Shown: positions 2,749 to 64,000 of the stretch, piece by piece | Position numbering within the stretch: position 1 is the first letter of the stretch | Layout: the number at the start of each line of letters is the position of its first letter | Assembly (NCBI GenBank): GCA_964344415.1 | Contig: CAYFMS010000001.1 | Span: 10,126-74,125, forward strand | From: an uncultured Gammaproteobacteria bacterium | GTDB lineage: Bacteria > Patescibacteriota > Patescibacteriia > UBA9934 | Direction: 5' to 3' | Length of the DNA: 64,000 bases | Program-made: the position numbers and the translations under genes | Notes under the pieces: model-generated | What the model saw: the letters and a program-made list of their open reading frames with translations, nothing else | Told to the model about the DNA's origin: nothing | The model's database searches: none

Positions 2749-3216
2749 CTATATTCCGATATCAACTTCCATTTCGAGCACTTCAGCGATATCTGGCGAG
2801 CAAGCGCCCGCAACAAGCATATCGCCACGCAATTCAAGATAGTAACCCGTTTGATGCTCGGAAAATGCCCCATAAGGATCAATCGGCGCCCAGTCACCAA
2901 GCTGCAAACAAACATCGCGCATATCCGAATCCATACAATGCTCACCATAAGAATCTGGACATAGATTCTCCATTCCTATCATACTTCGACCCGCCGCAGA
3001 CTGAGCCAGAATTGCCGCATAGGCTTCTTCGTCTGTTTCCTTTAAAAATAAAACTTCTTCTAAAATATTGCGTAAATCCTCCTGACGCTCTTGATCTCGA
3101 TACTCATGCAATTTTTGATTTGGCTGCTGAGCTAATGCTATGGCAATGGATGCAAAAATTAGAACTGTAAATACAGCAAGAATCTCAGCAATACTATGTC
3201 CATGGTTTTTCAGCAT
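2749..3216 (-). CDS. Type IV pilin-like / pseudopilin protein (class III prepilin signal)
   Basis: N-terminus MLKNHG|HSIAEILAVFTVLIFASIAIALA: Gly cleavage site, Glu at +5, then a hydrophobic helix, which is the prepilin peptidase substrate signature. Confidence 0.6.
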   Translation of the reverse strand: MLKNHGHSIAEILAVFTVLIFASIAIALAQQPNQKLHEYRDQERQEDLRNILEEVLFLKETDEEAYAAILAQSAAGRSMIGMENLCPDSYGEHCMDSDMRDVCLQLGDWAPIDPYGAFSEHQTGYYLELRGDMLVAGACSPDIAEVLEMEVDIGI

Positions 3217-3582
3217 ATTTTAGTTACGGATAGATGAGAAAAGTTAGAAAAGCAAGTAAAGTTAGTAAAATCGAAGAAAGAGACAAAAGAGATTTATGAG
3301 ATTGGAGAGATTCTAGTCGCAATTTGAACAGATCCTTCGACAGGCTCAGGATTTCAAATAATGTTACCCTCTTCCTGTCATTTCGACTAAGGCCGAAGGC
3401 CGCATGGAGAAATCTACTTAATGCGTAGAAGTTAAGAGGGAGAGTAAAGTTAGTAAGGTCGGAGAAAGAGACAAAAGAGATTTAGGAGATTTATTAGCTT
3501 GTAGGTTAGACTACACCCTACACCCTACTCCCTAAAACCTATACCCTAACGCAGTATACCAATTTTCTGCTAAGATACGGGC
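3217..3582. repeat. Mosaic intergenic repeat cluster A
   Basis: Two ~48 bp direct repeats at 3256..3306 and 3444..3491 (gtaaagttagtaa..tcg.agaaagagacaaaagagattta.gagatt). It shares module M3 (gagattggagagattctagtcgcaa) with 26955..26995 and module M4 (agatccttcgacaggctcaggatttc) with 8272..8300 and 26993..27020. A poly-pyrimidine ccctacaccctactccctaaaaccctataccc tract sits at 3505..3560. Confidence 0.7.
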
Positions 3583-4302
3583 ATGAATGAACAGCAATCA
3601 TCAGGATTTCTCCTTATCGATAAACCAGCCGGAATGACATCACATGATGTTGTTGATCGACTTCGACGCATTACCGGAATACGAAAAATTGGCCATGCTG
3701 GCACACTCGACCCTTTTGCGACGGGGCTTCTTATTCTTGCCATCGGACGATCGGCCACAAAGCGTATTCAAGAATTTGTGAAGCTTGATAAAGTCTATGA
3801 AGCAACATTTGTAATTGGCGCTACGACGGAAACGCTCGATACGGAATCTGAAATTGAAATAGATGAGCATTTTAAAGCTCCCTCGCAAGAACAGGTCGAG
3901 CAAACAGTAAAGACATTCATTGGGAAGCAAAAGCAGATTCCTCCAAAATATTCCGCTATCAAGAAAAATGGAAAAAAGATGTATGAACTCGCTCGAGCCG
4001 GTAAAGAAATCGAAATTGAACCAAGAGATATAGAAATTTTTGATTTTCAGCTTATTGGTGAAATGCACAAAACAGATATCGGCCTTAAAATTCCTGTCAG
4101 TATTCATGTGTCTTCTGGCACCTATATTCGAAGTGTTGCATTCGATCTTGGAAATAAGCTCGGCACGACAGGATATGTGAATCGCTTGCGACGCATTAGC
4201 ATCGGCGACCATCATGTGAAAGATGCGTATCAACTTGATAAGCTGTCTTCAGAGAATTGGATTGATTTTGTTCTTGATGATCCAAACTTACAACATAGCT
4301 GA
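3583..4302 (+). CDS. truB: tRNA pseudouridine(55) synthase
   Basis: 239 aa; GHAGTLDPFATGLLILAIG catalytic Asp motif of the TruB family. Confidence 0.9.
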   Translation: MNEQQSSGFLLIDKPAGMTSHDVVDRLRRITGIRKIGHAGTLDPFATGLLILAIGRSATKRIQEFVKLDKVYEATFVIGATTETLDTESEIEIDEHFKAPSQEQVEQTVKTFIGKQKQIPPKYSAIKKNGKKMYELARAGKEIEIEPRDIEIFDFQLIGEMHKTDIGLKIPVSIHVSSGTYIRSVAFDLGNKLGTTGYVNRLRRISIGDHHVKDAYQLDKLSSENWIDFVLDDPNLQHS

Positions 4303-4341
4303 ACTTATGGTAGTTTTACATGTCGTGACACGGAGGGAGTA

Positions 4342-4686
4342 ATGACAAAAACAGTTCCTTTGCTTGACTGGCTAATGATGCTAAAGCGTCAATTGGGCCC
4401 ACATCTTCGACAGGAAATTCTGGAGACAATCGGAATTTCCATTACTACTGGATACAACCCGGACGGGTCGATGCATTTCACTCTCAACGCGGAAGGTGTC
4501 AAGCAGCTTCGTGAGGCCTCGGAAGTATTCGGAATTGAGGCCCCTTTGACTGGCATCAATCAAGCACTCAAGCTCTACTACGTACTCTCAGATCTCGTCA
4601 AGGAGCATGGGGACGACCTGTACGTCCGCATAGGCCGCTGGGGAGAGTTGAAGAAGCTGGTACTCACACGCCGCAAAACAAAATAA
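4342..4686 (+). CDS. Hypothetical protein, compositionally atypical (GC ~52%)
   Basis: 114 aa ORF with a strong SD (GGAGGG, 6 nt spacer), followed by a rho-independent terminator; no recognisable motif. Confidence 0.5.
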   Translation: MTKTVPLLDWLMMLKRQLGPHLRQEILETIGISITTGYNPDGSMHFTLNAEGVKQLREASEVFGIEAPLTGINQALKLYYVLSDLVKEHGDDLYVRIGRWGELKKLVLTRRKTK

Positions 4687-4693
4687 TCACCGT

Positions 4694-4717
4694 ATCGGCC
4701 ATCGGCCGATTTTTTTA
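4694..4717 (+). terminator. Rho-independent terminator
   Basis: atcggcc-atc-ggccgat hairpin followed by T7. Confidence 0.7.
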
Positions 4718-4846
4718 TTGACGCGCTCATGCAGGGCTGATACCGTGTTTATATAAGTTGTAAACGGCTGGATTTGTGCGAACCTTGGCGGATCGGTTGA
4801 TATGAAAATGACTTTAATTTTGTTCGCGCGAACAGCACTTTAGTAT

Positions 4847-6370
4847 ATGAATAGTATTATATTTGGCCTGCTTGGCCTTGTTCTCGGAGGAATTGCCGGT
4901 TTTTTTATTCGAAAAGCTTTTGCAGCAAAACGTACAGCGGAGGCTGAGCAACGAGCAGAAAAACTTCTGAGTGATGCTCGGGCGGAAGAAAAGAACATGA
5001 TCCTTGAAGCAAAGGAACAGGCGCTTAAAATATCGGAAGAAGCTCGAAAAGAAGAAGAACAAATTCGATCTGAAATCAAACAAGCACAGCAGCGCATTGA
5101 AGAAAGAGAGCAGCGATTTGAAGATCGACTTCTCTCGCTTGAAGAAGACAGAAAAACAGTTGAGCATGATAAAAAGGAGCTCGAGGATCGCATGCAAGAA
5201 GTGCGCGCCATTCGAGAAGAATCTGTTTCAAAATTACAGGAAGTAGCTGGACTATCCAAAGAACAGGCGCTCGATCATTTATTGAAAGAAATCGAGCAGG
5301 ATAAGCAGGAAGTACTTATTGGACAACTTCGAAAACTAGATCAAATGAATGAGGAAGAAATTGAAGCAAAGGCTCGCAAAATTCTATCTCTTGCTATTCA
5401 ACGATTTGCATCAAGTCATGTCGTTGACGCAACAACCACACTTGTCGAGCTCCCATCCGATGACATGAAAGGGCGCATTATCGGAAAAGAAGGCCGCAAT
5501 ATTAAAGCGCTCGAACACTTAACAGGATGTGAAGTTATTATTGATGACACGCCAGGAATTGCCACCATCAGTGGCTTCTCCCCTGTTCGAAGGCAAATTG
5601 CAAAACATGCACTCGAGAAATTGATGAAAGATGGCCGCATTCAGCCGGCGCGCATCGAGGAGGCAGTGAATGAAGCAAAAAGAGACCTTGCCAAAGAAAT
5701 GAAAAAAGCTGGTGAAGATGCTCTATTTGAACTTGGCATTCCCGTTCCATCCATTGATCCAAAACTTGTTTCTATTCTTGGAAGACTAAAATTCAGAACA
5801 AGTTATGGTCAGAATGTTTTACAGCACTCCATCGAGGTAGCACGTATTTCTGGAATGATTGCTGAGGAATTAGGAGCTGATGTGTTTAATTGTAAAAAAG
5901 GAGGATTATTCCACGATATCGGAAAAGCGGTTGATCATGACATGCAAGGTGCTCATCCTGAGATTGGATACAATATCATGAAGAAATTTGGATTCCCTGA
6001 AGAGCTTTGCTATCAGTCCATTGCACATCATGAAGATAAACCGCGCACAATTGAGGGAGTGATTGTAAAGGCTGCTGATGCCATTTCTGGAGCGCGCCCA
6101 GGAGCAAGACGCAATAGCGTTGAGGAATACTTGCAACGATTACAAGCACTTGAAGATACGGCTACTGAATTTGCCGGAGTTGAGAAAGCATATGCCATTC
6201 AGGCGGGCCGCGAAGTTCGCGTATTCGTCACACCGCAGGAAGTTGATGATTATGGCGCATATAAACTCGCAAATCAGATTGCAAAGAAGATTGAAAATGA
6301 CTTAACCTATCCGGGCGAAGTCAAGGTGACGATTATACGCGAAACTCGCATCAGTGAGGTTGCAAGATAG
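4847..6370 (+). CDS. rny: Ribonuclease Y
   Basis: 507 aa; N-terminal TM helix, coiled-coil region, KH domain, HD domain (FHDIGKA...HHED). Confidence 0.9.
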   Translation: MNSIIFGLLGLVLGGIAGFFIRKAFAAKRTAEAEQRAEKLLSDARAEEKNMILEAKEQALKISEEARKEEEQIRSEIKQAQQRIEEREQRFEDRLLSLEEDRKTVEHDKKELEDRMQEVRAIREESVSKLQEVAGLSKEQALDHLLKEIEQDKQEVLIGQLRKLDQMNEEEIEAKARKILSLAIQRFASSHVVDATTTLVELPSDDMKGRIIGKEGRNIKALEHLTGCEVIIDDTPGIATISGFSPVRRQIAKHALEKLMKDGRIQPARIEEAVNEAKRDLAKEMKKAGEDALFELGIPVPSIDPKLVSILGRLKFRTSYGQNVLQHSIEVARISGMIAEELGADVFNCKKGGLFHDIGKAVDHDMQGAHPEIGYNIMKKFGFPEELCYQSIAHHEDKPRTIEGVIVKAADAISGARPGARRNSVEEYLQRLQALEDTATEFAGVEKAYAIQAGREVRVFVTPQEVDDYGAYKLANQIAKKIENDLTYPGEVKVTIIRETRISEVAR

Positions 6371-6839: not shown

Positions 6840-8120
6840 TTATTCTTTATTCCAATTCTCTATTTCTTGTTTTATATTTTCTAGTTTAACAAGACGCATT
6901 TCTTTTTCCGATCGCTCTTTCCATTCCGCCGAATCCTCAGTAAGCGTTTTTTCAGAAATGACAATGCGCAGTGGAATTCCAAGCAGATCCGACTCGCCGA
7001 ATCGAGCTCCGGGAGAGATACCATTTCTATCATCCCATAGCACCTCAATTCCTGACTGAATCAAATTTGTATACAGTTCCTCGCTTGTATTTTCAATGCG
7101 AGCCTGAATTGTTTCATCTTTTGATTCAAGTGAGACCAAATGCACCGCAAAAGGAGCCACAGATTTTGGCCAGACAAGACCTCGCTCATCACTCAAGAGT
7201 TCAGCAATTGTTCCCATGAGCCTGCCTGGACCAATGCCGTAACTTCCCATGAAGACGAATTGAGGCTCTCCATTTTCATCAATGTATTTCAAATCAAGAG
7301 GCTCTGAAAATCGTGTTCCAAGCGTAAAAATATTTCCAACTTCAACCGCTTTCGTTTCGCGGAGTGTATCCCTAGAAAGTCCAAGCTGTTCCAGCACCTC
7401 ATCATGCATCACCTCTTCATTCACAGCGATACGCTTTTCTTCATCAATATAAATCGTGTCCTCGCCGGCATCCGTTTCCGTTTGGAATTCATGTGAATAT
7501 TTTGAAAATGCCCCGCCAGATGCAAATGTTACATAGGTTTTTTCTCCAATGCCACAGCGATCAAAGACATTTAAATATGCCTGCTTTGATTCTTCATAAA
7601 ATGCATCATGTTGATCTTTATTGAGTGAAAATGAATAAAGATCTTTCATGATAAATTCGCGCGAGCGCATAATTCCACTCTTTGCACGCAATTCATTTCG
7701 AAATTTGGTCTGAAATTGATACGCCGCCGCCGGTAAATCTCGATATGATCGGATGTGGTTTTTCATGAGATTCGTAATCGGCTCCTCATGTGTCCAACCA
7801 AGCCCGAGCTTTGTTCCATTTTTTAATTCCGTTCTAAACCAAACATCACTTGCTTCATCGCTCCATCTGTCCGTCGTCTGCCAGACATCCTGCCCTTGGA
7901 GTGCCGTTAAAAACAATTCTTGTCCGCCAATTGCATTCATTTCTTCACGAATGATTTGCATCACATTATTAAGGACGCGAAGCCCAAGCGGAAGATACGA
8001 ATAGACGCCAGCCATGTCTTTATGAACATAACCAGACCGAATAAGAAGCTGAGCATTCTTCGCTTGCTCGCCTGCTGGGATTTCTTTTGTTGCCCTTGTA
8101 AATAATTGTGACTGTTTCAT
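6840..8120 (-). CDS. proS: Prolyl-tRNA synthetase, short form lacking the bacterial INS editing domain
   Basis: 426 aa; class II aaRS motifs; N-terminus MKQSQLFTRATKEIPAGEQAKNAQLLIRSGY matches the ProRS consensus. Confidence 0.85.
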   Translation of the reverse strand: MKQSQLFTRATKEIPAGEQAKNAQLLIRSGYVHKDMAGVYSYLPLGLRVLNNVMQIIREEMNAIGGQELFLTALQGQDVWQTTDRWSDEASDVWFRTELKNGTKLGLGWTHEEPITNLMKNHIRSYRDLPAAAYQFQTKFRNELRAKSGIMRSREFIMKDLYSFSLNKDQHDAFYEESKQAYLNVFDRCGIGEKTYVTFASGGAFSKYSHEFQTETDAGEDTIYIDEEKRIAVNEEVMHDEVLEQLGLSRDTLRETKAVEVGNIFTLGTRFSEPLDLKYIDENGEPQFVFMGSYGIGPGRLMGTIAELLSDERGLVWPKSVAPFAVHLVSLESKDETIQARIENTSEELYTNLIQSGIEVLWDDRNGISPGARFGESDLLGIPLRIVISEKTLTEDSAEWKERSEKEMRLVKLENIKQEIENWNKE

Positions 8121-8354
8121 GGCTGCAGTTTAGCAGAGATTTTCAATGGGGTGTAGGGGTGGAACGCCGTTACTAATTTACGGATGGTACAGATATACGG
8201 ATTTAGGTGCGAAGGAGATAAAAGAGATTTATGAGGTTGTAGGTTTTAGGTTGTAGCTTGTAGGCGTAGAAAGATCCTTCGACAGGCTCAGGATTTCGAA
8301 TGCGGTCGCGCAGTGAGCTTGGAAAGGTTGAACCTATTGCAGGCTCACAAGCGA
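8121..8354. repeat. Mosaic intergenic repeat cluster B
   Basis: Contains M2 (tacagatatacggatttaggtgcgaaggaga), M1 (gtaggttttaggttgtagcttgtagg), M4 (agatccttcgacaggctcaggatttcgaatgcggtcgcgcagtga) and a terminal hairpin cacaagcgac + T-run also seen at 13956..13972. Confidence 0.7.
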
Positions 8355-9521
8355 CTATTTTTTATGCAATAAGGCTGCAAACCATGTCGCAATCGGTACG
8401 GTAAGTACAAGTGCAGCCGTTCCCGCAAGCGTCCGGACAATTTCTTCCGCAATAAGCTCATCGTTCACAAAACGGATAATGCCCACCTCTTGCGTCATAA
8501 GAAAGAGTAAGAAAAGAGGCATTGCAACACCTGCATAGGCAAGTACCAGTGTATTCACTGTTGATGCAATATGATGCCGACCAATACGCATGGCACTTTT
8601 GAACAACTCCTTTTGATTCAATTTTTTATTTGCACCATGCAATTCCTCCACCGTTTCACTTTGTGTTATTGCAATGTCATCAAGTACACCGACAGCACCC
8701 AGAATGAATCCCGCTAGCAAAATTCCACTCGGAACTTGAACAAGATTAGACTGGAAATAGAGCAGTATCGCCTCTTCTGATGCAAAGCCCGATAAACGAC
8801 CGATAGAAACAAAGGCATGAGAAAAGATGACTGCAAGTACTAATCCGCAAAGTGTCGCCCCATATGAAACAAATGTACGCTTATTGAATCCATGCGATAA
8901 ATGCATATTAATAGCCAAAATCACAACCGATCCAATGACGGTCGCGAGCACCGGGTCCATCCCCTTTAATATTTGCGGAAAAATAAATCCAAATAATACA
9001 AGAATGGTAAGTCCAAGACCGATAAGTGCAGAAAGACCGCGTATCCGTCCTACAGCAATGATGAGTGCGGAAAATATAGCAAGTAACCACAATAATCCCC
9101 CCGTTCTCACAACGTCAACAAGAAATACTTGCACTATTTCACCATCTTGCAAGATGACTTGGAGATATACTTGATCTCCTTCTTCGATATCGTAACGAAG
9201 TCCTTCTAGAAAAGATTGTTGGGTGTCAACGGTATATTCCTGCCCATCAGCAACCGCGGTGAAAATGACATGTCGATTTCCGTCTATTTCAATCTCACTG
9301 ACAATTTCCGTAATCTCCGCCTTTACCTCGACTGTTTCAACGACTGGCAATTCCGAATCCTGCTGAGCAGAATCAATTGAGCGTTGCAAATCCTGAATCT
9401 CATTTTGTAATTCCTGCAATTCCTCTAAATCGCTCTCAAATAAAAAGTCGCTTTCTGTTTGAGCCAATGCCGGGGTGAAAATGACAAAGCTAAGAAGAAA
9501 TAATAAAAGTATCCATCTCAT
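8355..9521 (-). CDS. Multi-pass membrane protein with N-terminal signal peptide and extracytoplasmic domain (YibE/F-like)
   Basis: 388 aa; signal peptide MRWILLLFLLSFVIFTPALAQ, ~130 aa soluble domain, then ~8 TM helices; the YibE/F-like call rests on architecture alone. Confidence 0.4.
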   Translation of the reverse strand: MRWILLLFLLSFVIFTPALAQTESDFLFESDLEELQELQNEIQDLQRSIDSAQQDSELPVVETVEVKAEITEIVSEIEIDGNRHVIFTAVADGQEYTVDTQQSFLEGLRYDIEEGDQVYLQVILQDGEIVQVFLVDVVRTGGLLWLLAIFSALIIAVGRIRGLSALIGLGLTILVLFGFIFPQILKGMDPVLATVIGSVVILAINMHLSHGFNKRTFVSYGATLCGLVLAVIFSHAFVSIGRLSGFASEEAILLYFQSNLVQVPSGILLAGFILGAVGVLDDIAITQSETVEELHGANKKLNQKELFKSAMRIGRHHIASTVNTLVLAYAGVAMPLFLLFLMTQEVGIIRFVNDELIAEEIVRTLAGTAALVLTVPIATWFAALLHKK

Positions 9522-9522
9522 A

Positions 9523-9717
9523 TTACAGGCTGTTTCCTATAAAATGAATTGCGATAAGGAGTGCGCCAAATCCCATCATACCGAGGCCAAAATAGAATAA
9601 TGCTGCCGTATCGCCGTCATCGCGCACAAAGTTTGCGAATATAATGAATGAAAGCACAACCATTGTTACCGCCGGCAATGCCATAAAGATAATTCCAAGT
9701 ATTAAGACAAAACTCAT
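9523..9717 (-). CDS. Small two-TM membrane protein
   Basis: 64 aa, two hydrophobic helices, placed immediately upstream of 8355..9521 in the same orientation (operon-like). Confidence 0.4.
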   Translation of the reverse strand: MSFVLILGIIFMALPAVTMVVLSFIIFANFVRDDGDTAALFYFGLGMMGFGALLIAIHFIGNSL

Positions 9718-11237: not shown

Positions 11238-11291
11238 AAATATTCTTCCGTAACAGTATAGCAAAAAAGAAAATATCGGCCTCCACCGATA

Positions 11292-11573
11292 TTATTTTGT
11301 TTCTTTTTGTTCGTTTTTAGATGGAGCAGGAGCTGCTTTTTTCTCTTCTTTCTTAGCCTTAGTTGGAGACTTCTTCGCTGAAGTCTTCTTTACTTCTTCC
11401 TTCTTTGCCTTCGGAGCTTCTGGCTTTACACTTTCTGTAGCCTGACCCTTCATATGCGGCAAAAATGCTTCACCGGTTTCCTTATCGATCTGAACACGCA
11501 CCGGTTTTAGTGCATGATGCGACCGACGTCGACGAACTTTTGATTTTGAGTTCTTAAATGCTGGTACTGACAT
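11292..11573 (-). CDS. rpmF: 50S ribosomal protein L32 with Lys/Ala-rich C-terminal extension
   Basis: MSVPAFKNSKSKVRRRRSHHALKP matches the bL32 N-terminal consensus; start at the internal Met (11573). Confidence 0.8.
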   Translation of the reverse strand: MSVPAFKNSKSKVRRRRSHHALKPVRVQIDKETGEAFLPHMKGQATESVKPEAPKAKKEEVKKTSAKKSPTKAKKEEKKAAPAPSKNEQKETK

Positions 11574-11590
11574 AGTTATATTTCGAGAGG

Positions 11591-11619
11591 ATATTACAAG
11601 GAATAGCAAAAATTGTCAA
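11591..11619 (-). promoter_or_regulatory. Near-consensus promoter for rpmF
   Basis: Minus strand TTGACA-17-TAATAT, ~18 nt upstream of the rpmF ATG. Confidence 0.55.
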
Positions 11620-11620
11620 T

Positions 11621-11660
11621 AAAAAAGTGCTCATCACAGCCGTGGATGGCTATGATGAGC
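11621..11660 (-). terminator. Rho-independent terminator ending the candidate ncRNA
   Basis: Minus strand gctcatcatagcc-atcc-acggctgtgatgagc hairpin followed by T6. Confidence 0.75.
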
Positions 11661-11930
11661 AGAATTGTTGTTGATTCCCCGATCTAACGAGGACTTCCAG
11701 CTCCCCGAGCCCGGTGACCAGCACCCCTGCGCACCGTACGTGGAGCCTTGCGTGCCACCTTTGCATTGAGACTGCTGGGCTCTGCAGCGCTTCTCGTGCT
11801 ACTCACCTTGTCAGTGCGTGCCTGGACTTCCCACTCACCCGTTTCTGGGTTGTAGGACTTGCTTTCACCCATTTCGTCGTTCTTATTCAAAACGCTTCCC
11901 CTGCTTGTCACGCCGTTCATCGGCGAGCCG
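11625..11930 (-). ncRNA. Candidate structured ncRNA of unassigned class (~300 nt, GC ~58%)
   Basis: A GC-rich island between a near-consensus promoter (TTGACA-17-TACTAT at 11964..11936) and the terminator at 11621..11660, inside a 42% GC genome. The internal 62-codon ORF has no SD. The motif GGAAGUCC occurs three times. Confidence 0.45.
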
Positions 11931-11935
11931 GATGC

Positions 11936-11964
11936 ATAGTACATCAAATAACAGCTTTTGTCAA
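11936..11964 (-). promoter_or_regulatory. Near-consensus sigma70-type promoter driving the candidate ncRNA
   Basis: Minus strand TTGACA-17-TACTAT. Confidence 0.55.
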
Positions 11965-11965
11965 T

Positions 11966-11997
11966 CAAAAAACCGGGTTGAAACCCGATTCTTTTTT
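11966..11997. terminator. Terminator downstream of the sod gene (bidirectional hairpin)
   Basis: ccgg-ttgaaa-cccg hairpin with T-runs on both strands. Confidence 0.5.
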
Positions 11998-12598
11998 AAA
12001 TGCGACCCTCGACAATATTCCAATTTAGATTCTTGAAAAAGGCGTCAATATAGTCTCCGCGCTCGGACGGTAGATAATCAAGCAAGAATGCATGCTCCCA
12101 TACATCCATTGCAAGCAAGACTTTCTGAGAACCAAGATGTCCTAATTCATGATCATTCACCCAGATATTGAAAAGATTTCCATTCGCTTCATCCTGAACA
12201 AGCAATGTCCAGCCGGCGCCACGTAATTTCCCAATGCGCTTAAAGTCATCCTGCCATGCTTCAAAAGAACCAAATTGCTCTGCAAGTTTTTCCTTCAAAA
12301 CCGTGTTCTCACCCTCTCCTTGTTCAAATTGTTCAAAATAGTATTCATGCAAACGCATGCCATTGAATTCAAATCCAAAGCGACGTGAAAGCTCAGCAAG
12401 TTCCGGACCCCCCTGCTCTTTCAGTCCATCAATTTTTTCGATCAAGAGATTCACATTTTTAACATAGCCCGCATATAAACCAAGATGTGCATCGATCTGC
12501 TTCTTCGAAAGACCCTCAAGTTCGGGTAATTGAAATTCCTTTTGTGTATAGAGTTTTTGCATACAAACGCATGGTAGCATAAACTCCTTAGTACTCAA
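11996..12598 (-). CDS. sod: Fe/Mn-family superoxide dismutase
   Basis: C-terminal MDVWEHAFLLDY signature (Asp/His ligands) and a FNGMRLHEYYF His; the N-terminal HHxKHH motif is divergent (IDAHLGLYAGYVKN). True start may be the internal Met (MQKLYTQKEF). Confidence 0.7.
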   Translation of the reverse strand: MSTKEFMLPCVCMQKLYTQKEFQLPELEGLSKKQIDAHLGLYAGYVKNVNLLIEKIDGLKEQGGPELAELSRRFGFEFNGMRLHEYYFEQFEQGEGENTVLKEKLAEQFGSFEAWQDDFKRIGKLRGAGWTLLVQDEANGNLFNIWVNDHELGHLGSQKVLLAMDVWEHAFLLDYLPSERGDYIDAFFKNLNWNIVEGRI

Positions 12599-12619
12599 GA
12601 CTAATTTTATAGAGAATAT

Positions 12620-13303
12620 ATGACGAATTATCTGAAATCATTTTTGTTTCTTGGCGGCCTTCTTCTTATTGGTGCCGGTTGTTTTCAATCAGCGGATCAA
12701 ATCGAACCGCTTGCCAGTGGAGAAACCGAGACAGCAAATGACACCCCTGTTCTTATCCATGAATTAACTGATGGCTCATATTCCATGAATGAAGAAAGCT
12801 CTGTACGATGGACCGGATATGGAATTGGAAAATCTCATACAGGAACATTTGATATTTCAGAGGGCGCATTCACTGTTACAGATGGGATGATTTCTGATTT
12901 TTCTGTCACTATCGATACGACAAGCTTCACAAGCGACGATATACAAAATCCTAGTTTGCGCGAAGGATTCGACAATCACTTGAAGTCAGCCGATTTTCTT
13001 GATGTTGAGAGCTTTGCAACCGCTCAGGGAATTTTGTCAGGAGATATCAATAATGTGAATGATAATACATATTCATATTCCATGGACCTCACGATTAAAG
13101 GCGAAACTGAATCTGTTCAAGGTGAATTTGATGTAGAAAGCGCTGATGATAGTGCAATCACGCTCAGCAGCTCGATAGCTATTGATCGTACCGTCTGGGG
13201 AATCACATCTCGAAGCAGTAATTTCTTCGATAATTTAGGTGATGAGCTCATCGAAGACAATGTCGACCTTGAATTCTCTCTCGATCTTTCACGTGTTGAA
13301 TAG
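12620..13303 (+). CDS. Lipoprotein with YceI-like domain
   Basis: Signal plus lipobox LIGAGC; SSVRWTGYGIGKSHTGTFD resembles the start of a YceI beta-barrel. Confidence 0.45.
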   Translation: MTNYLKSFLFLGGLLLIGAGCFQSADQIEPLASGETETANDTPVLIHELTDGSYSMNEESSVRWTGYGIGKSHTGTFDISEGAFTVTDGMISDFSVTIDTTSFTSDDIQNPSLREGFDNHLKSADFLDVESFATAQGILSGDINNVNDNTYSYSMDLTIKGETESVQGEFDVESADDSAITLSSSIAIDRTVWGITSRSSNFFDNLGDELIEDNVDLEFSLDLSRVE

Positions 13304-14025
13304 TTGCTGAGTAATGCAGTTGACTCGGTATCTGTTTATGTTTCGTAAACCAGGATACCGTGTCATCCCGGACGGAGCGAAGCGGAGATCCGGCCTGCCT
13401 GCCGGCAGGCAGGGAACCATCGCCAAGTGCCATCCCGAGCCCTGCCTGCCGGTAGGCATGGATCTCTTGTTTTCATCTTACTTTTCTTTAAAGAAAAGTA
13501 AGCAAAAGAACGCCGCCAGTGCTCGCTTTGTCACATGCATAAAGCGTCATCGCTCGGGCAAAACAGAGAGTAGGAATGTCTTTATTTTTCTTAATACAGT
13601 GGTGCGTTCATTCCTATCGGCTGTTTTGCAATTCCTCGCTCTTGCCGCATGCAATGTGACAGTCTCGCAGGTGGCAGCAGTTTCGGAAATGAAGGATATA
13701 AGGTAAATATTGGTCGCTTGTGAGTTGGATGATATTTCGTTGAAGTTTGAGTAGCGGAATGAGCCGTACTGGAATGTACGGTGAATGAGCAGTAAGTAGA
13801 CGAGAGGCTCATTCGTGTGGATCCCAAATTTAATTTGGGATTTCGAACGCGGTCGCGAAGTGAATGAGATGCTATTTCGGTGAAGATCGAGCACACGCAG
13901 TAAGGCGCACTGAAAGGTGCGACGTCGAGTAGCGCAGATCTGAGCCGGAAGAGCGCTCATTCACAAGCGACTTTTTTGATTTATTTACTTTCTTTATGGT
14001 TAAATAAAACTGAAAGGAGGTCGCG
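13304..14025. repeat. Mosaic intergenic repeat cluster D
   Basis: Perfect palindromes ctgcctgccggcaggcag (13395) and cttacttttctttaaagaaaagtaag (13470). The segment 13440..13690 is an inverted copy of 27000..27250. Two degenerate ~85 bp tandem units lie at 13720..13800 and 13860..13945. An 11 bp long-range stem gtcgcttgtga (13712) pairs with tcacaagcgac (13956), followed by T6. Confidence 0.75.
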
Positions 14026-14271
14026 ATGAACGGCAATTTCTACAGCGCGTATAATCGCGCTGATCCTGATTCTATCTTCGTACTGCGTCTACGCCATGGA
14101 AATGGCATGAGACGCGTAGGGGCCGTTTTACTGAAATACGGCATCGAACCGTATGAAATGGACGCGGAAAAACATATCGTCACTCTCCTGCGCAAATCAA
14201 CCGATCGCGAAATCGGACATGGCGCAGGGCTAACAATGAACCCATTAATCAAATACTGGGAACAATTGTAA
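14026..14271 (+). CDS. Hypothetical small protein (81 aa), GC ~48%
   Basis: Strong SD AAAGGAGG 7 nt upstream; no recognisable domain. Confidence 0.5.
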   Translation: MNGNFYSAYNRADPDSIFVLRLRHGNGMRRVGAVLLKYGIEPYEMDAEKHIVTLLRKSTDREIGHGAGLTMNPLIKYWEQL

Positions 14272-14295
14272 ACACGAGACTCGAGAGGGTCTTTT

Positions 14296-39206: not shown

Positions 39207-39773
39207 TCACTGACCAGGATCGAAGTTGAACTCGTACTCGTACAAGACGTCCCCGATTCGATCCCATGCATCGCCCTGCCTGACACAGCAGTGCAAGAGA
39301 GCGGCGATCTTTTTGCCAAGACCAGGGACTTCAGGGTTGTACCCGCCATGCATCTTGGCATCACGATCCTCGAGAAGCTCCTCGATGCGCTCGTAGCGCT
39401 CGTCGGAGGTCATGCCGTTCCAGTTCTCACGCCTCTTGGGCTGAGAGCAGGAATTGACATGCCTCATTACCTTCTCGATCTCAGCAGGATTCATCCCCCC
39501 GCGGTACCCGATTTCCTGCTGGAAGGCGGAGGCGGCTTCCCTCGCAACAACGAAAGCTCTCAGTGCCTTCAGACGATCTTCCAAGGTCTTGATGAACTTT
39601 TCGACAGCCTCTGCTCTGAATTTCCCTCGCCAATCTGCCGCCCGCTTCAGGCGGCGACTCTCGTTCACGAGCTCGAGCAGTCGCTCCAGGTCTTCGACGC
39701 GGCGATTCTTCGCCCCGTGGAACCCGCCACCGATCACCTTATCGCGCACTAGTCGCAAATTCTGCTTTCCCAT
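39207..39773 (-). CDS. Orphan hypothetical protein in a GC-rich cassette (188 aa)
   Basis: SD GGAGG 5 nt upstream; helical charged protein, no recognised motif; preferred over the antisense ORF 39162..39752 on composition and RBS grounds. Confidence 0.5.
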   Translation of the reverse strand: MGKQNLRLVRDKVIGGGFHGAKNRRVEDLERLLELVNESRRLKRAADWRGKFRAEAVEKFIKTLEDRLKALRAFVVAREAASAFQQEIGYRGGMNPAEIEKVMRHVNSCSQPKRRENWNGMTSDERYERIEELLEDRDAKMHGGYNPEVPGLGKKIAALLHCCVRQGDAWDRIGDVLYEYEFNFDPGQ

Positions 39774-39833: not shown

Positions 39834-39863
39834 AAATATAGCAAAAAAACAGCCTTTTGTCAA
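39834..39863 (-). promoter_or_regulatory. Near-consensus promoter of the GC-rich cassette, overlapping the ileS terminator
   Basis: Minus strand TTGACA-17-TATATT; hairpin gcctt...aaggc plus T7 at 39851..39882 serves as the ileS terminator. Confidence 0.5.
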
Positions 39864-57850: not shown

Positions 57851-57927
57851 TGGATTTTTGGTGGACCCTACCGGAGTCGAACCGGTGACCTCCTCGGTGC
57901 AAACGAGGCGCTCTAGCCAGCTGAGCT
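57851..57927 (-). tRNA. tRNA-Ala (anticodon TGC)
   Basis: 77 nt: acceptor GGGCCCT/AGGGTCC with the G3:U70 Ala identity pair, anticodon loop ttTGCac, T-arm GGTTCGACTCC, encoded CCA. Confidence 0.9.
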
Positions 57928-58112
57928 AAGGGCCCATGCGACACTCACATATCTTTTTTCTCCACCTACTTTGTCGATCATCTCCGCTGCTCAATGAATC
58001 TCCTCGTATGTGACGAAAAATCTTATGTTCATGAATCTCGTCAAACAAGATGGTGGCGAAATAGTACCTTTTTGATCCCCATATGTCAAGACGAGTATGA
58101 TAATATAAATCT

Positions 58113-60865: not shown

Positions 60866-60975
60866 TTCCGGCGCCCACCTACTCTCGCCATTCTTGACTA
60901 CCATCGGCCCTTAAGGCTTAACTGCCGTGTTCGGGATGGGAACGGGTGTGACCCTCAAGGAAATGGCACCGAAAC
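60866..60975 (-). rRNA. rrf: 5S rRNA
   Basis: Minus strand GGTCACACCCGTTCCCATCCCGAACACGGCAGTTAAGCC...GCCGATGGTAGT core of 5S. Confidence 0.85.
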
Positions 60976-61169
60976 ATTACTGACTTTTTTCTGATCTACT
61001 AAATATCAATTATACGAGGCAAATATTCCTCTTCTCATTTATCGAGAAAAGTGAGTGGAGAGCTGGACAATTAGTACTACTCAGCTGAACACGTTACCGT
61101 GCTTACACTTGTAGCCTATCAACCAGATAGTCTCTCTGGAGTCTCATAACGAAGATTAATCTTGGAATC

Positions 61170-61202
<33 letters not shown>

Positions 61203-61325
61203 GAACCGAATGTCGCTACCCAGCAATGCCCTTGGCAGGACAACTGGTACACGAGAGATTCGTTCACCCCGGTCCTCTCGTACTAGGGGCGAGTTTCCTC
61301 AATCTTCAACGCGCGCAGCGGATAG

Positions 61326-61444
<119 letters not shown>

Positions 61445-61983
61445 GAACCTCCCCGTCGCTGTGGACGCTTGGGGGAGACCAGCCTGTTATCCCCGGAGTA
61501 GCTTTTATCCGTTGAGCTTCCGCCGTCCTATATCGAACGGTCGGATCACTAGCTTCTGCTTTCGCAACTGCTCGACATGTCAGTCTTGCAGTAAAGCTGG
61601 CTTATGCGCTTGCACGTCCAGCCCGATTTCCATCCGGGCTAAGCCAACCTTTGTAAACGCCTCCGTTACTTTTTGGGAGGCTACCGCCCCAGTCAAACTA
61701 CCCATCAGATACTGTTCCCGCTGCCGGATTCACGGCTGCAGGTTAGGATTCACATAGTACAAGGGTGGTATCTCACTGATGCCAAGGCTCCCACCTATAC
61801 TGAACATGTAAAACATGAACCCAATATCAAACTGTAGTAAAGCTTCACGGGGTCTTTTCGTCCGGCTGCGCGTAATGAGCATCTTCACTCATATCGCAAT
61901 TTCGCCGAGTACATCGTTGGGACAGTTTGGAAATCGTTATGCCATTCGTGCAGGTCGGAACTCACCCGACAAGGAATTTCGCT

Positions 61984-62710
61984 CATTCTGTTACTTTGTT
62001 ACCTTATTGAGCTGGTAACGGACCAAGCTGAGCTTGGCGGTTCGTCGCGAAACGAACTCTACATGTCGCCATGCAGGTCGGACTATATCTTCATCATAAT
62101 GATGTTTGGCATATAGTCTCTGAGGATTCCAGAAATCTAGATGGAACTTTACGATTCATTCTTTGGATGATTTTCGCGATTTTTATCATTCCAGTCTTTT
62201 CAAGATGCATTCCTTCTTCCATTAAATGGAGGATAGAAACAAAGTTCTCGTAATCAGCTTTTTTGGCTGTCTTTAGAGAATATCTTTCAAAAAAGGGTAT
62301 GATTTTCTGAATAAGATCTTTTCGAGATCTTACACAGTATCGCAACAAATTTTCCTTATGATTATCACGACGGCGATTTTGATAAATCGATCCACACTTG
62401 AAATAATCCTTGATTATTTCGAGTGATTCACGACTCTTTTCACCTTGCGTGACAACAAATTCAGGAAAAATTTGCCATCCGGAACTCGTCGTTTTATTGC
62501 GGATAATACTGACCGAGAAGCAACCTTCTCCGTCAACGAATCCACAAATCCATCCAGCTAATTCTGGCCTTTCCTGCTGATTGTCTGGCTTCCTTTCGGA
62601 AACACCTCGTGGATTTTTACTGGGCATACTATGTGTATAGTTTACCCTAGTACCCGAGGATACTCCAGATGTTCCAGCATATAGCCAAATTTTACTAAGG
62701 CAGCTATTCC
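61984..62710 (-). mobile_element. Group I intron in 23S rRNA (inserted after ...CCTAAGGT, E. coli ~1917 region) carrying a LAGLIDADG homing endonuclease
   Basis: Exon continuity ...GGTCCTAAGGT | intron | AGCGAAATTCCTTGTCGGGT...; the intron ends in G. Confidence 0.8.
62094..62627 (-). CDS. LAGLIDADG homing endonuclease (intron-encoded)
   Basis: LAGWICGFVDGEGCFSV motif; 177 aa, single-motif (homodimeric) type. Confidence 0.8.
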   Translation of the reverse strand: MPSKNPRGVSERKPDNQQERPELAGWICGFVDGEGCFSVSIIRNKTTSSGWQIFPEFVVTQGEKSRESLEIIKDYFKCGSIYQNRRRDNHKENLLRYCVRSRKDLIQKIIPFFERYSLKTAKKADYENFVSILHLMEEGMHLEKTGMIKIAKIIQRMNRKVPSRFLESSETICQTSL

Positions 62711-64000
62711 ACCTTAGGACCGTTATAGTTACGGCCGGCGTTCATCCGCGCTTCGGTCGCAAGCTTCTCTACCGAAGTAGATAACCCGCTTCCTTAACGT
62801 TCGGACACTGGCCAGGCATCAGCCCCTATACATCACCTTACGGTTTAGCAGGGACCTGTGTTTTTGATAAACAGTCGCTTCCAATCCTTAGCTGTGGGTC
62901 TTCTTCTCCCGAAGAAAACCAGGCCTTATCCCGAAGTTACGGCCGCTGTTTTGCCGAGTTCCCTAACGATGTTTCTCTCGTACGCCTTAGTGCTTTAACA
63001 CCCACCTACCTGTGTTGGATTTGGTACGGGCACATAATATCTAATCTTAGAGGCTTTTCTTGGCCCACTTTCCTTTCCTCTCCCTGCACAAAGTGCAAGT
63101 CGCGCTGACCCAGAGTCTGATGACCGGCGGATTTGCCTACCAGTCGACCCCAAGCCCCCAATGTCATAGCCATAGGACACAGGAAATTCAAGCAAGCGTC
63201 CCCTCATCGAAATATTACGTGGTGCAGGAATATTAACCTGCTGTGCATCGGCTACGCCTTTCGGCCTCGTCTTAGCTCCCGACTAACCCACAGACGATTT
63301 ACGTTGCTGTGGAAACCTTAGGTTTTCGGCGGACAGGGTTCTCACCTGTCTTTTTGCTACTCATGCCAACATTCTCTCTTCCCATCGCTCCACCATGCCT
63401 CACGACATGACTTCAGCGCCATGGAAATGCTCTCCTACCGCCCAAAGATTCCGGAGAATCAATGGACCCATAGCTTCGGTGTACTACTTAGCCCCGGTAC
63501 ATTTTCGGTACAAGAAAACTTGACCAGTGAGCTGTTACGCTTTCTTTAAAGGATGGCTGCTTCCAAGCCAACCTCCTGGTTGTATGAGTCTTCTCACCAC
63601 CTTTTACACTTAGTAGTAACTTTGGGACCTTAGCTTATGATCTGGGCTGTTTCCCTTTCGACTAATGGAGCTTCGCCCCCATAGTCTGACTGCCAGGAAC
63701 ACATTGTAGTATTCGGAGTTTGGCTCGGTAGGCTACCCGAAGGCGCCGAACCGAATCAGTGCTCTACCCCCACAATGCTATTAACTGACGCTATGCCTAA
63801 ACATATCTCGGAGAGAACCAGCTATTACCGAACTCGATTGGAATTTCTCCGCTAACCACAGCTCATCCAAGCGTTTTGCACCACGCGGTGGTTCGGGCCT
63901 CCACATGCTTTTACACATGCTTCACCCTGGCCATGGTTAGGTCGTCCGGTTTCGGGTCCTATATGAGCGACAAACGCCCGTTAAGGCTCGCTTTCACTCT

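Follow-up and report, generated by a model that had tools for sequence, protein, structure and literature searches.

The self-contained unit that lies between sod and rpmF, on the minus strand of the 64,000-nt stretch of DNA analysed here (the window), is real, but it is an orphan that falls outside any known RNA family. It is most likely a young small RNA (sRNA) gene, with a tiny protein gene and an inert insert as less probable alternatives. We give roughly an even chance to the view that the element is a stand-alone, lineage-specific sRNA gene of ~310 nt in a Uhrbacteria-like CPR genome; a functional structured RNA of ~310 nt, belonging to no described family and recent in a single Uhrbacteria-like lineage whose genome measures ~0.77 Mb, is proposed tentatively.

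The unit opens with promoter P1 (TTGACA-17-TACTAT, 11936..11964, minus strand, a match at 10 of 12 positions), and the transcript predicted from it (11622..11930, minus strand, ~309 nt, 56% GC), with its start inferred 6-7 nt past the -10 box, would end at an intrinsic terminator (11621..11661, minus strand) lying ~300 nt from P1 on the same strand. The terminator consists of a 14-bp stem that includes 7 G-C pairs (11661-11628), a 6-nt loop and a U6 run, read in the DNA as CTTTTTT, and its pair probability is 0.98. On the upstream side, the sod terminator, a hairpin CGGGUUUCAACCCG followed by a U-run (11966..11995, minus strand, with the stem listed at 11974-11987), comes directly after the sod stop codon (sod ends at 11996) and touches the -35 box of P1. 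On the downstream side, rpmF has a promoter of its own, P2 (TTGACA-17-TAATAT, 11591..11619, minus strand), which marks the downstream edge of the insert and is followed by the rpmF start ATG at 11573. The unit is thus intergenic, with its own promoter and intrinsic terminator, and apart from the neighbouring mRNAs, as expected of a stand-alone sRNA gene. Its body is GC-rich, at 0.545-0.585 over 11600-11899 (measured in 200-nt windows), while the flanks lie at ~0.38-0.43 and the window as a whole at 0.436; the enclosed DNA, at 56-60% GC, is comparable to the tRNA and rRNA genes in the window. All of these elements, namely the promoter, the strong terminator ~300 nt downstream, the GC-rich body in lower-GC DNA and the separate consensus promoter of rpmF, had been described in the initial annotation, and all were confirmed.

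Promoter-like sites matching at 10 or more of 12 positions are not enriched in the window (17 found versus 21 +/- 5 in shuffles). The TTGACA-17-TAnnnT sites, on the other hand, stand at unit starts in six of six cases: besides P1, the class is found upstream of tRNA-Arg, rpmF, the S1 gene, a gene for a 188-aa protein and tRNA-Ala, and the hexamers of P1 are identical to both hexamers of the tRNA-Ala promoter. The confinement of this promoter class to unit starts, together with the very strong terminator, argues that transcription of the unit from P1 is likely. The arrangement as a whole, with P1 placed just past the sod terminator, a GC island behind it and a very strong terminator at its end, is beyond chance.

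These signals bear on a reading that we regard as unlikely, in which the element is an inert remnant of foreign DNA inserted between sod and rpmF, maybe transcribed but with no function of its own, and in which the bracketing signals serve the neighbours or stem from a partial duplication of the rpmF promoter region. The P1 and P2 regions do form a direct repeat of 36 nt with 72% identity that flanks the 345-nt unit, as this reading would have it. The repeat contains the two promoters plus the T-runs ahead of them, and may reflect a duplication at insertion or just shared function; in our assessment it is mostly consensus hexamers and T-runs, which weakens the argument. Against an inert remnant stand also the promoter, which is of the class serving real genes in the window, and the 14-bp terminator, which is unusually strong for an accident. 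A MITE or other mobile element was considered and rejected, as the window holds no second copy (an absence of paralogs that an inert remnant would share), the ORF within the element occurs on only 2 contigs and the flanking repeat amounts to two promoters.

The predicted fold of the RNA is well defined. The transcript has a minimum free energy of -120.2 kcal/mol (z -3.49, terminator included), compared with -100 kcal/mol (z -2.03) for the antisense strand. Without the terminator, the core reaches z -2.07, and its centroid is nearly identical to the minimum free energy structure. The core has an ensemble diversity of 27.9; shuffles give 59 +/- 18 and only 4% of them are as low, so that 96% of the shuffles have a less well-defined fold, which also speaks against an inert remnant; a protein-coding comparator from the metagenomic locus L084 lacks such a signal of low ensemble diversity. 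Helix pair probabilities range from 0.78 to 0.98. In this single-sequence prediction, a closed core (11698..11930, minus strand) is joined by an interrupted closing helix of 22 bp (11930-11902 with 11723-11698) and contains two short hairpins (11894-11878 and 11857-11829) followed by a long branched arm (11826-11724) with sub-hairpins at 11802-11784 and 11782-11743. A predicted 3' tail (11662..11693, minus strand) comprises a 6-bp hairpin (11693-11676), whose loop would hold the UAG stop codon of the sense ORF, and a CA-rich linker AUCAACAACAAUUC (11675-11662) with an unpaired probability of 0.93; within the core, a purine-rich stretch (11877-11858) is predicted to be persistently unpaired. 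These fold data are single-sequence statistics for one genome, and for the core they stand at the 2-4% level.

A short repeat of the AAGUCC type had been reported to recur three times within the element. The string GGAAGUCC occurs exactly twice and the third site reads GCAAGUCC, so the threefold recurrence was overstated, and by our own estimate the repetition of GGAAGUCC/GCAAGUCC within 310 nt is within chance. Because the copies fall in three different reading frames, the repeat is one of nucleotides and not of peptides. A CsrB-like sponge was rejected: GGA is not enriched and, in our assessment, the copies of the repeat occupy structural contexts that do not correspond to one another.

The element also contains a sense ORF of 78 codons (11684..11920, minus strand) that opens at ATG 11920. 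The gene caller annotated this ORF in the source assembly, and its product includes the peptides MNGVTSRGSVLNK... and MGESKSYNPETGEWEVQAR. The initial annotation had described a 62-codon frame without an RBS as the only ORF. That frame is the one opened by the internal ATG 11872, and it extends to 78 codons from ATG 11920 and to 94 codons from TTG 11968; the plus strand of the element is open as well, with ORFs of 104 and 72 codons. Neither does the missing RBS argue against coding, since an SD-like motif precedes only 8 of the 57 long ORFs of the window, rpmF itself lacks one, and many ORFs of the window are leaderless, with TATAAT 6-9 nt ahead of the ATG. In a genome so poor in SD motifs, SD-less initiation is normal and the missing RBS is therefore uninformative; in SD-poor, leaderless genomes generally, it is no ground for calling a unit non-coding. 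This keeps in play a reading that we consider rather unlikely, in which the unit is a small orphan protein gene of foreign GC-rich origin, expressed from a short-leader SD-less mRNA and encoding a basic, largely disordered protein of 78 (or 62) aa.

The placement of the ORF agrees with this small-protein reading. Its ATG lies 10 nt into the transcript and 15 nt past the -10 box, much as in rpmF (17 nt), its end lies 22 nt ahead of the terminator, and an ATG-opened sense ORF spanning the transcript arises in only 4.2% of dinucleotide shuffles. The ORF has a purine as the first base of 77% of its codons and a period-3 power of z 2.5, and both point the same way, although this periodicity is far below that of rpmF (z 8.9), a gene of similar length. 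The base composition of the codons tells against it: GC is flat over the codon positions (0.58/0.60/0.57), with no GC3 excess, and at position 2 it reaches 0.59-0.60, compared with 0.27-0.44 in 11 of 11 real genes measured, GC-rich ones included. The length of the ORF is unremarkable and also counts against a protein: 36% of shuffles contain an open frame at least as long as the longest one here, and the antisense ORF of 104 codons is equally long, which shows that the T-poor composition alone generates long ORFs.

Initiation would depend on which start codon is used. The 22-bp closing helix buries ATG 11920, whose unpaired probability is 0.34-0.41, and only 5 of 56 genes have a start as closed; this counts against the small protein. 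ATG 11872, which lies in an open A-rich stretch with an unpaired probability of 0.81, is accessible and therefore compatible with SD-less initiation, and this counts for it.

Two very large protein searches speak against a protein product. A word-index search of 5.8 billion clustered proteins found no homolog, only the ORF itself, present on only 2 contigs, and Pfam gave no domain match. Searched exhaustively with phmmer, a set of 1.84 billion representatives yielded five weak matches to Big_6, DUF285 and Kelch-like repeat proteins, which were rejected as repeat amplification (the 48.6 bits of P0020 are spread over 7 repeat units at ~7 bits each); kinship with these proteins was dismissed, as the families are unrelated to one another and the Pfam Big_6 model does not match the ORF. 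The AlphaFold2 model of the product is mostly disordered (pLDDT 63.5, pTM 0.22), and its single confident feature, a beta-hairpin at residues 19-34, is a point in favour of the protein. Signals for RNA and for coding each stand at about the few-percent level, and the weakness of both is what an inert remnant would show. On balance, the observations support the view that the sequence resembles a folded RNA more than a native gene.

The genomic neighbourhood in relatives places the element in a variable slot. The window itself corresponds to part of a metagenomic contig of 768 kb (ENA ERZ930061, k127_100043). The 80 GTDB genomes retrieved through NusB (best identity 65%) are mostly Candidatus Uhrbacteria and other Patescibacteria; for the Uhrbacteria-like relatives overall, NusB is 64-68% identical to that of the source genome. 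The order nusB-rnc is invariant across the NusB-retrieved genomes, and where gyrA shares the contig stretch the arrangement is gyrA-(rpmF)-nusB-rnc, with gaps down to ~270-420 nt. In other genomes the gyrA-rpmF interval is enlarged by unrelated, often GC-rich cargo, which identifies it as an insertion hotspot; in the source genome it holds two ORFs without a Pfam match, yceI, sod and the element. That the contents of this hotspot are unrelated between genomes fits an inert remnant. Two metagenomic relatives found through SOD, L084 and L085, retain sod in the slot. In L085, whose L32, NusB and RNase III are 74%, 68% and 77% identical to those of the source, the rpmF promoter comes right after the sod stop codon and the element is absent, again as an inert insert would allow. 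In L084, another GC-rich unit, of ~420 nt, and a further ORF come after sod. This unit was rejected as a homolog: it stands where the element does in the source genome, but no similarity links the two, and its coding statistics are clear. In L084, L004 and L171 the slot is filled by GC-rich protein genes, and one more such gene lies elsewhere in the window, which counts for the small-protein reading. In relatives reached through L32, gaps of 123-221 nt lie upstream of rpmF and the element is absent.

P2 aligns with the rpmF promoter of L085 and is conserved in L171, L175 and L178. The conservation of this rpmF-proximal promoter among relatives indicates that P2 is ancestral and that the element lies upstream of it. 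An rpmF leader or attenuator was rejected on the same ground, as the conserved rpmF promoter lies 3' of the element's terminator. Sequence comparison thus presents the element as a lineage-specific insert between sod and rpmF, found in one CPR bacterium only.

Direct searches for the element agree with this picture. Searches with nhmmer found no homolog in the loci of the 80 GTDB relatives reached through NusB, in 80 metagenome loci reached through SOD or in 9 further loci reached through L32, and neither did blastn and tblastx against the sequences that fill the gyrA-rpmF slots. A single-sequence covariance model of the closed core matched nothing in 1.43 + 0.30 Mb of relatives' DNA. Beyond cellular relatives, blastn in distant mode found no homolog among phages and plasmids, back-translated peptides found none on viral contigs, and a search of viral contigs by AAGUCC spacing returned 7 chance matches with no further similarity. 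The protein collection contains no closer relative of the source species, and at the distances sampled (conserved proteins ~56-77% identical, the N-terminal part of L32 up to 85%) the unit, judged by sequence, is not conserved. The initial annotation had held that absence of conservation in related genomes would argue against a structured RNA, and that is the outcome; it is also counted for an inert remnant.

The tests against known RNA families were negative throughout. At gathering thresholds, the Rfam 15 matches in the whole window are limited to 23S, 5S and three tRNAs, with nothing at the element, so the Rfam check proposed earlier gave no family to which the unit could be demoted. Permissive Rfam scans of 501 nt and of the 251-nt core detected no RNase P, tmRNA, SRP or 6S RNA at E<=10, and their only matches were noise, to terminators or on the wrong strand. 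ARAGORN found no tmRNA in the window and three tRNAs only, all away from the element.

The initial annotation had suggested that the element may be a divergent housekeeping RNA; of these the likeliest would be a reduced CPR-type RNase P RNA, with tmRNA, SRP and 6S RNA as alternatives, and we now consider the idea very improbable. RNase P RNAs in 10 of 35 circular CPR genomes escape default thresholds and are without several helices (Lui et al., PMC8172020), and in CPR forms P12-P14, P18 or most of P15 may be missing (PMC8172020), which leaves some room for such an RNA. Because CPR forms can escape default thresholds (PMC8172020), the core features of RNase P were tested explicitly, in addition to scans with the covariance models RF00010, RF00011 and related ones. 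The P4 helix was defined as CR-I GAGGAAAGUCC paired with CR-V ACAGAAnnCGGCUUA, plus the J2/4 adenosines. The element contains a CR-I-like string, GUGGGAAGUCC, that fits the consensus at 9 of 11 positions, with 2 mismatches, which is a point in favour of RNase P; CR-V, in contrast, is absent, whether sought as ACAGAAnnCGGCUUA at <=3 mismatches, as GGCUUA at <=1 mismatch or as ACAGAA/GGCUUA, and the CR-II-like string sits 5' of the CR-I-like string, the wrong order for RNase P.

It had been claimed that a P4 helix cannot be formed. A weak P4-like pairing can in fact be drawn by eye between AGUCCAGG and ACCGGGCU (CCGGGCU), with ~6 pairs and a bulged U, so this part of the claim was too strong; the exclusion itself holds on the other core elements of RNase P that are missing. 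The string ACCGGGCU, which sits just ahead of the 3' strand of the closing helix, resembles the E. coli sequence ACCCGGCU. The pairing leaves a J2/4 of about 1 nt with no J2/4 adenosines, and it competes with the closing helix, which is far stronger. Past the CR-I-like string, the arm of the predicted fold goes directly back into the closing helix without J5/15 or P15. No RNase P threading has room for J2/4, J5/15 or P15, and both the P7-P10 cruciform and the P11/P12 module are absent from the element. RNase P RNA of type A or B was rejected, as the Rfam scores and the P4, J5/15-P15 and specificity-domain features all fail to appear; an extremely reduced RNase P-like RNA without P15 and J2/4 has, in our view, only the slightest probability. 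Short resemblances to the conserved regions of RNase P are no evidence of membership.

The other housekeeping RNAs fare no better. For tmRNA, ARAGORN and Rfam were negative, the element has no T-arm GGUUCGAAUCC and no T-loop, even as UUCRA, and the frames after AACGACGAAA encode no tag-like peptide; this agrees with the earlier remark that a tRNA-like end is missing. SRP RNA was rejected because Rfam was negative and the helix-8 motif is absent at <=5 mismatches. 6S RNA was rejected because Rfam was negative and the RNA is predicted to form a closed core with several branches instead of a rod; a typical 6S RNA is moreover ~180-200 nt long, compared with ~310 nt for the element. A lineage-specific insert that has no counterpart in ~1.7 Mb of relatives' DNA is not what a housekeeping RNA would be. 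The 1.8 Mb of relatives' loci also contain no ordinary RNase P or tmRNA, a result that says nothing about the element. With no model scoring, the defining motifs absent and the unit missing at the same site in every relative compared, the housekeeping proposal is not supported, and the element, as far as its sequence tells, is outside the RNase P, tmRNA, SRP and 6S families.

The orphan sRNA gene accounts best for these data. In its favour we count its own promoter and terminator, the GC island, the sense-strand fold, the flat codon-position GC, the lack of protein homologs, the burial of ATG 11920 in the closing helix, the unremarkable longest frame and the mostly disordered AlphaFold2 model. 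Against it we count the lack of homologs anywhere searched, the absence of the element at the same site in the closest relatives, the transcript-spanning ATG-ORF with its period-3 z of 2.5 and accessible ATG 11872, and the fact that the other GC-rich inserts in the clade and in the window are protein genes. The standalone structured RNA of the initial annotation is therefore upheld in part: the self-contained unit, the well-defined fold, the flat codon-position GC and the lack of protein homologs agree with it, and the absence from relatives does not.

We propose a model whereby an sRNA gene was acquired or born inside the insertion-prone gyrA-rpmF interval. A strong sigma-70-type promoter placed after the sod terminator would drive the GC-rich body, and transcription would end at the terminator upstream of the rpmF promoter. 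The RNA would fold into a closed core, in which the predicted 22-bp helix joins the 5' end to position ~233, followed downstream by the small hairpin, the unpaired CA-rich linker and the terminator hairpin. It may then act in trans, as a regulatory or protein-binding sRNA whose likeliest contact sites would be the purine-rich stretch at 11877-11858 or the CA-rich linker at 11675-11662, and it would probably not be an essential housekeeping RNA.

CPR bacteria have tiny genomes and, to our knowledge, RNA-based regulation in them is almost unknown. If it is a real sRNA, the element would be among very few candidate regulatory RNAs in these bacteria and an example of a new RNA gene arising in an insertion hotspot. 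Coming from a single genome, it is a candidate worth following up by metatranscriptomics and falls short of a discovery.

The element was also compared with known systems. It resembles RNase P RNAs of type A and the CPR forms in the helix that closes its 5' and 3' ends, in the GGGAAGUCC string akin to CR-I, in the position of ACCGGGCU ahead of the 3' strand of the closing helix, with a possible short P4-like pseudoknot, and in a size comparable to that of the most reduced forms; it differs from them in gaining no covariance-model score, in missing the core modules and in not being conserved in relatives. It resembles retron msr-msd RNA in its terminal inverted repeats, in two short hairpins followed by a long arm and in a length of a few hundred nt. 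A retron was rejected, as what lies downstream is a terminator and rpmF, no reverse transcriptase gene occurs there or within ~6 kb to the left or right, and the Rfam retron families do not match the element.

With the orphan genes that fill the same slot in relatives (ORF117 of L084 and the GGDEF gene of L004 and L171), the element shares its location and, with these and the 188-aa gene of the window (39207-39773), a raised GC content and promoter- and terminator-like signals of its own. The element, ORF117 and the 188-aa gene also have no Pfam domain, the GGDEF genes being the exception. The protein genes have a position-2 GC of 0.38-0.44 and period-3 z of 3.9-28.7, against the flat GC and z 2.5 of the element, an SD is present in ORF117 and the 188-aa gene and missing from the element, and no sequence similarity connects the element to any of these genes.

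From typical stand-alone, trans-acting sRNA genes the element differs in its length, which at ~310 nt is at the long end of the range, in its transcript-spanning ORF and in its occurrence in one genome only. It resembles them in being an intergenic promoter-to-terminator unit of a size within their range and of narrow distribution, with more structure and a higher GC content than its surroundings and with unpaired stretches upstream of the terminator hairpin.

In Uhrbacteria-like genomes, the stretch between gyrA and rpmF is a hotspot for insertions. In its smallest arrangement among the genomes compared, the gene order is gyrA-rpmF-nusB-rnc, while the expanded intervals carry cargo that is mutually unrelated and frequently GC-rich. 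The interval spans positions 11238-14295 of the window and, in three loci of Uhrbacteria-like relatives, positions 7672-9700 (L004), 3256-5854 (L084) and 2789-4000 (L171). The cargo is a GGDEF gene in L004 and in loci L171-L174 and sod with orphan ORFs in L084; in the window it comprises yceI, sod and the element, the GC-rich promoter-to-terminator unit that is a candidate orphan small RNA.

A 36-nt direct repeat, 72% identical and with a spacing of 345 nt, lies on both sides of the element (window 11591-11626 and 11936-11971), each copy consisting of a T-run followed by TTGACA-17-TAnTAT. This repeat could be a duplication produced at insertion, or the copies could be two promoters that are alike through doing the same job. 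Elsewhere in the interval, a 22-nt self-complementary palindrome, CCTGCCTGCCGGCAGGCAGGGA, occurs twice (window 13394-13462), in copies that are 91% identical and 47 nt apart; both lie in the DNA bounded by yceI and a 137-codon ORF that matches no Pfam family. The palindrome looks like a REP-like element, and its presence is the reason that 'PAGRQ' peptides recur in several spurious ORFs.

Only 8 of the 57 long ORFs in the whole window have GGAG, GAGG or AGGA 5' of the start, indicating a genome poor in Shine-Dalgarno (SD) motifs. Many of these ORFs have a TATAAT box 6-9 nt ahead of the ATG, an arrangement implying that leaderless mRNAs are widespread in the source genome. The 188-codon ORF at window 39207-39773 on the minus strand (~60% GC, versus 43.6% for the window) has GGAGG as its SD motif, a TTGACA-17-TATATT promoter at 39863 and strong coding periodicity (z 12.4); judged from its sequence, this ORF resembles a GC-rich protein gene of foreign origin.

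The 23S rRNA segment (window 61051-64000, minus strand) is 2950 nt long and covers model positions 668-2925, or 2258 positions, and therefore contains ~690 extra nucleotides. Together with a GC peak inside the segment at 61126-61800, this excess suggests that the 23S gene carries at least one insertion; an Rfam scan of the window returned no group I intron family at gathering score in this segment. The 23S gene adjoins 5S (window 60866-64000), tRNA-Ala (57859-57935), which has a TTGACA-17-TACTAT promoter of its own, lies ~3 kb from this pair with long ORFs intervening, and no 16S rRNA gene is found within the 64-kb window. The 23S/5S pair, distant tRNA-Ala and missing 16S are consistent with the published report that CPR genomes often do not carry their rRNA genes as operons (PMC8172020).
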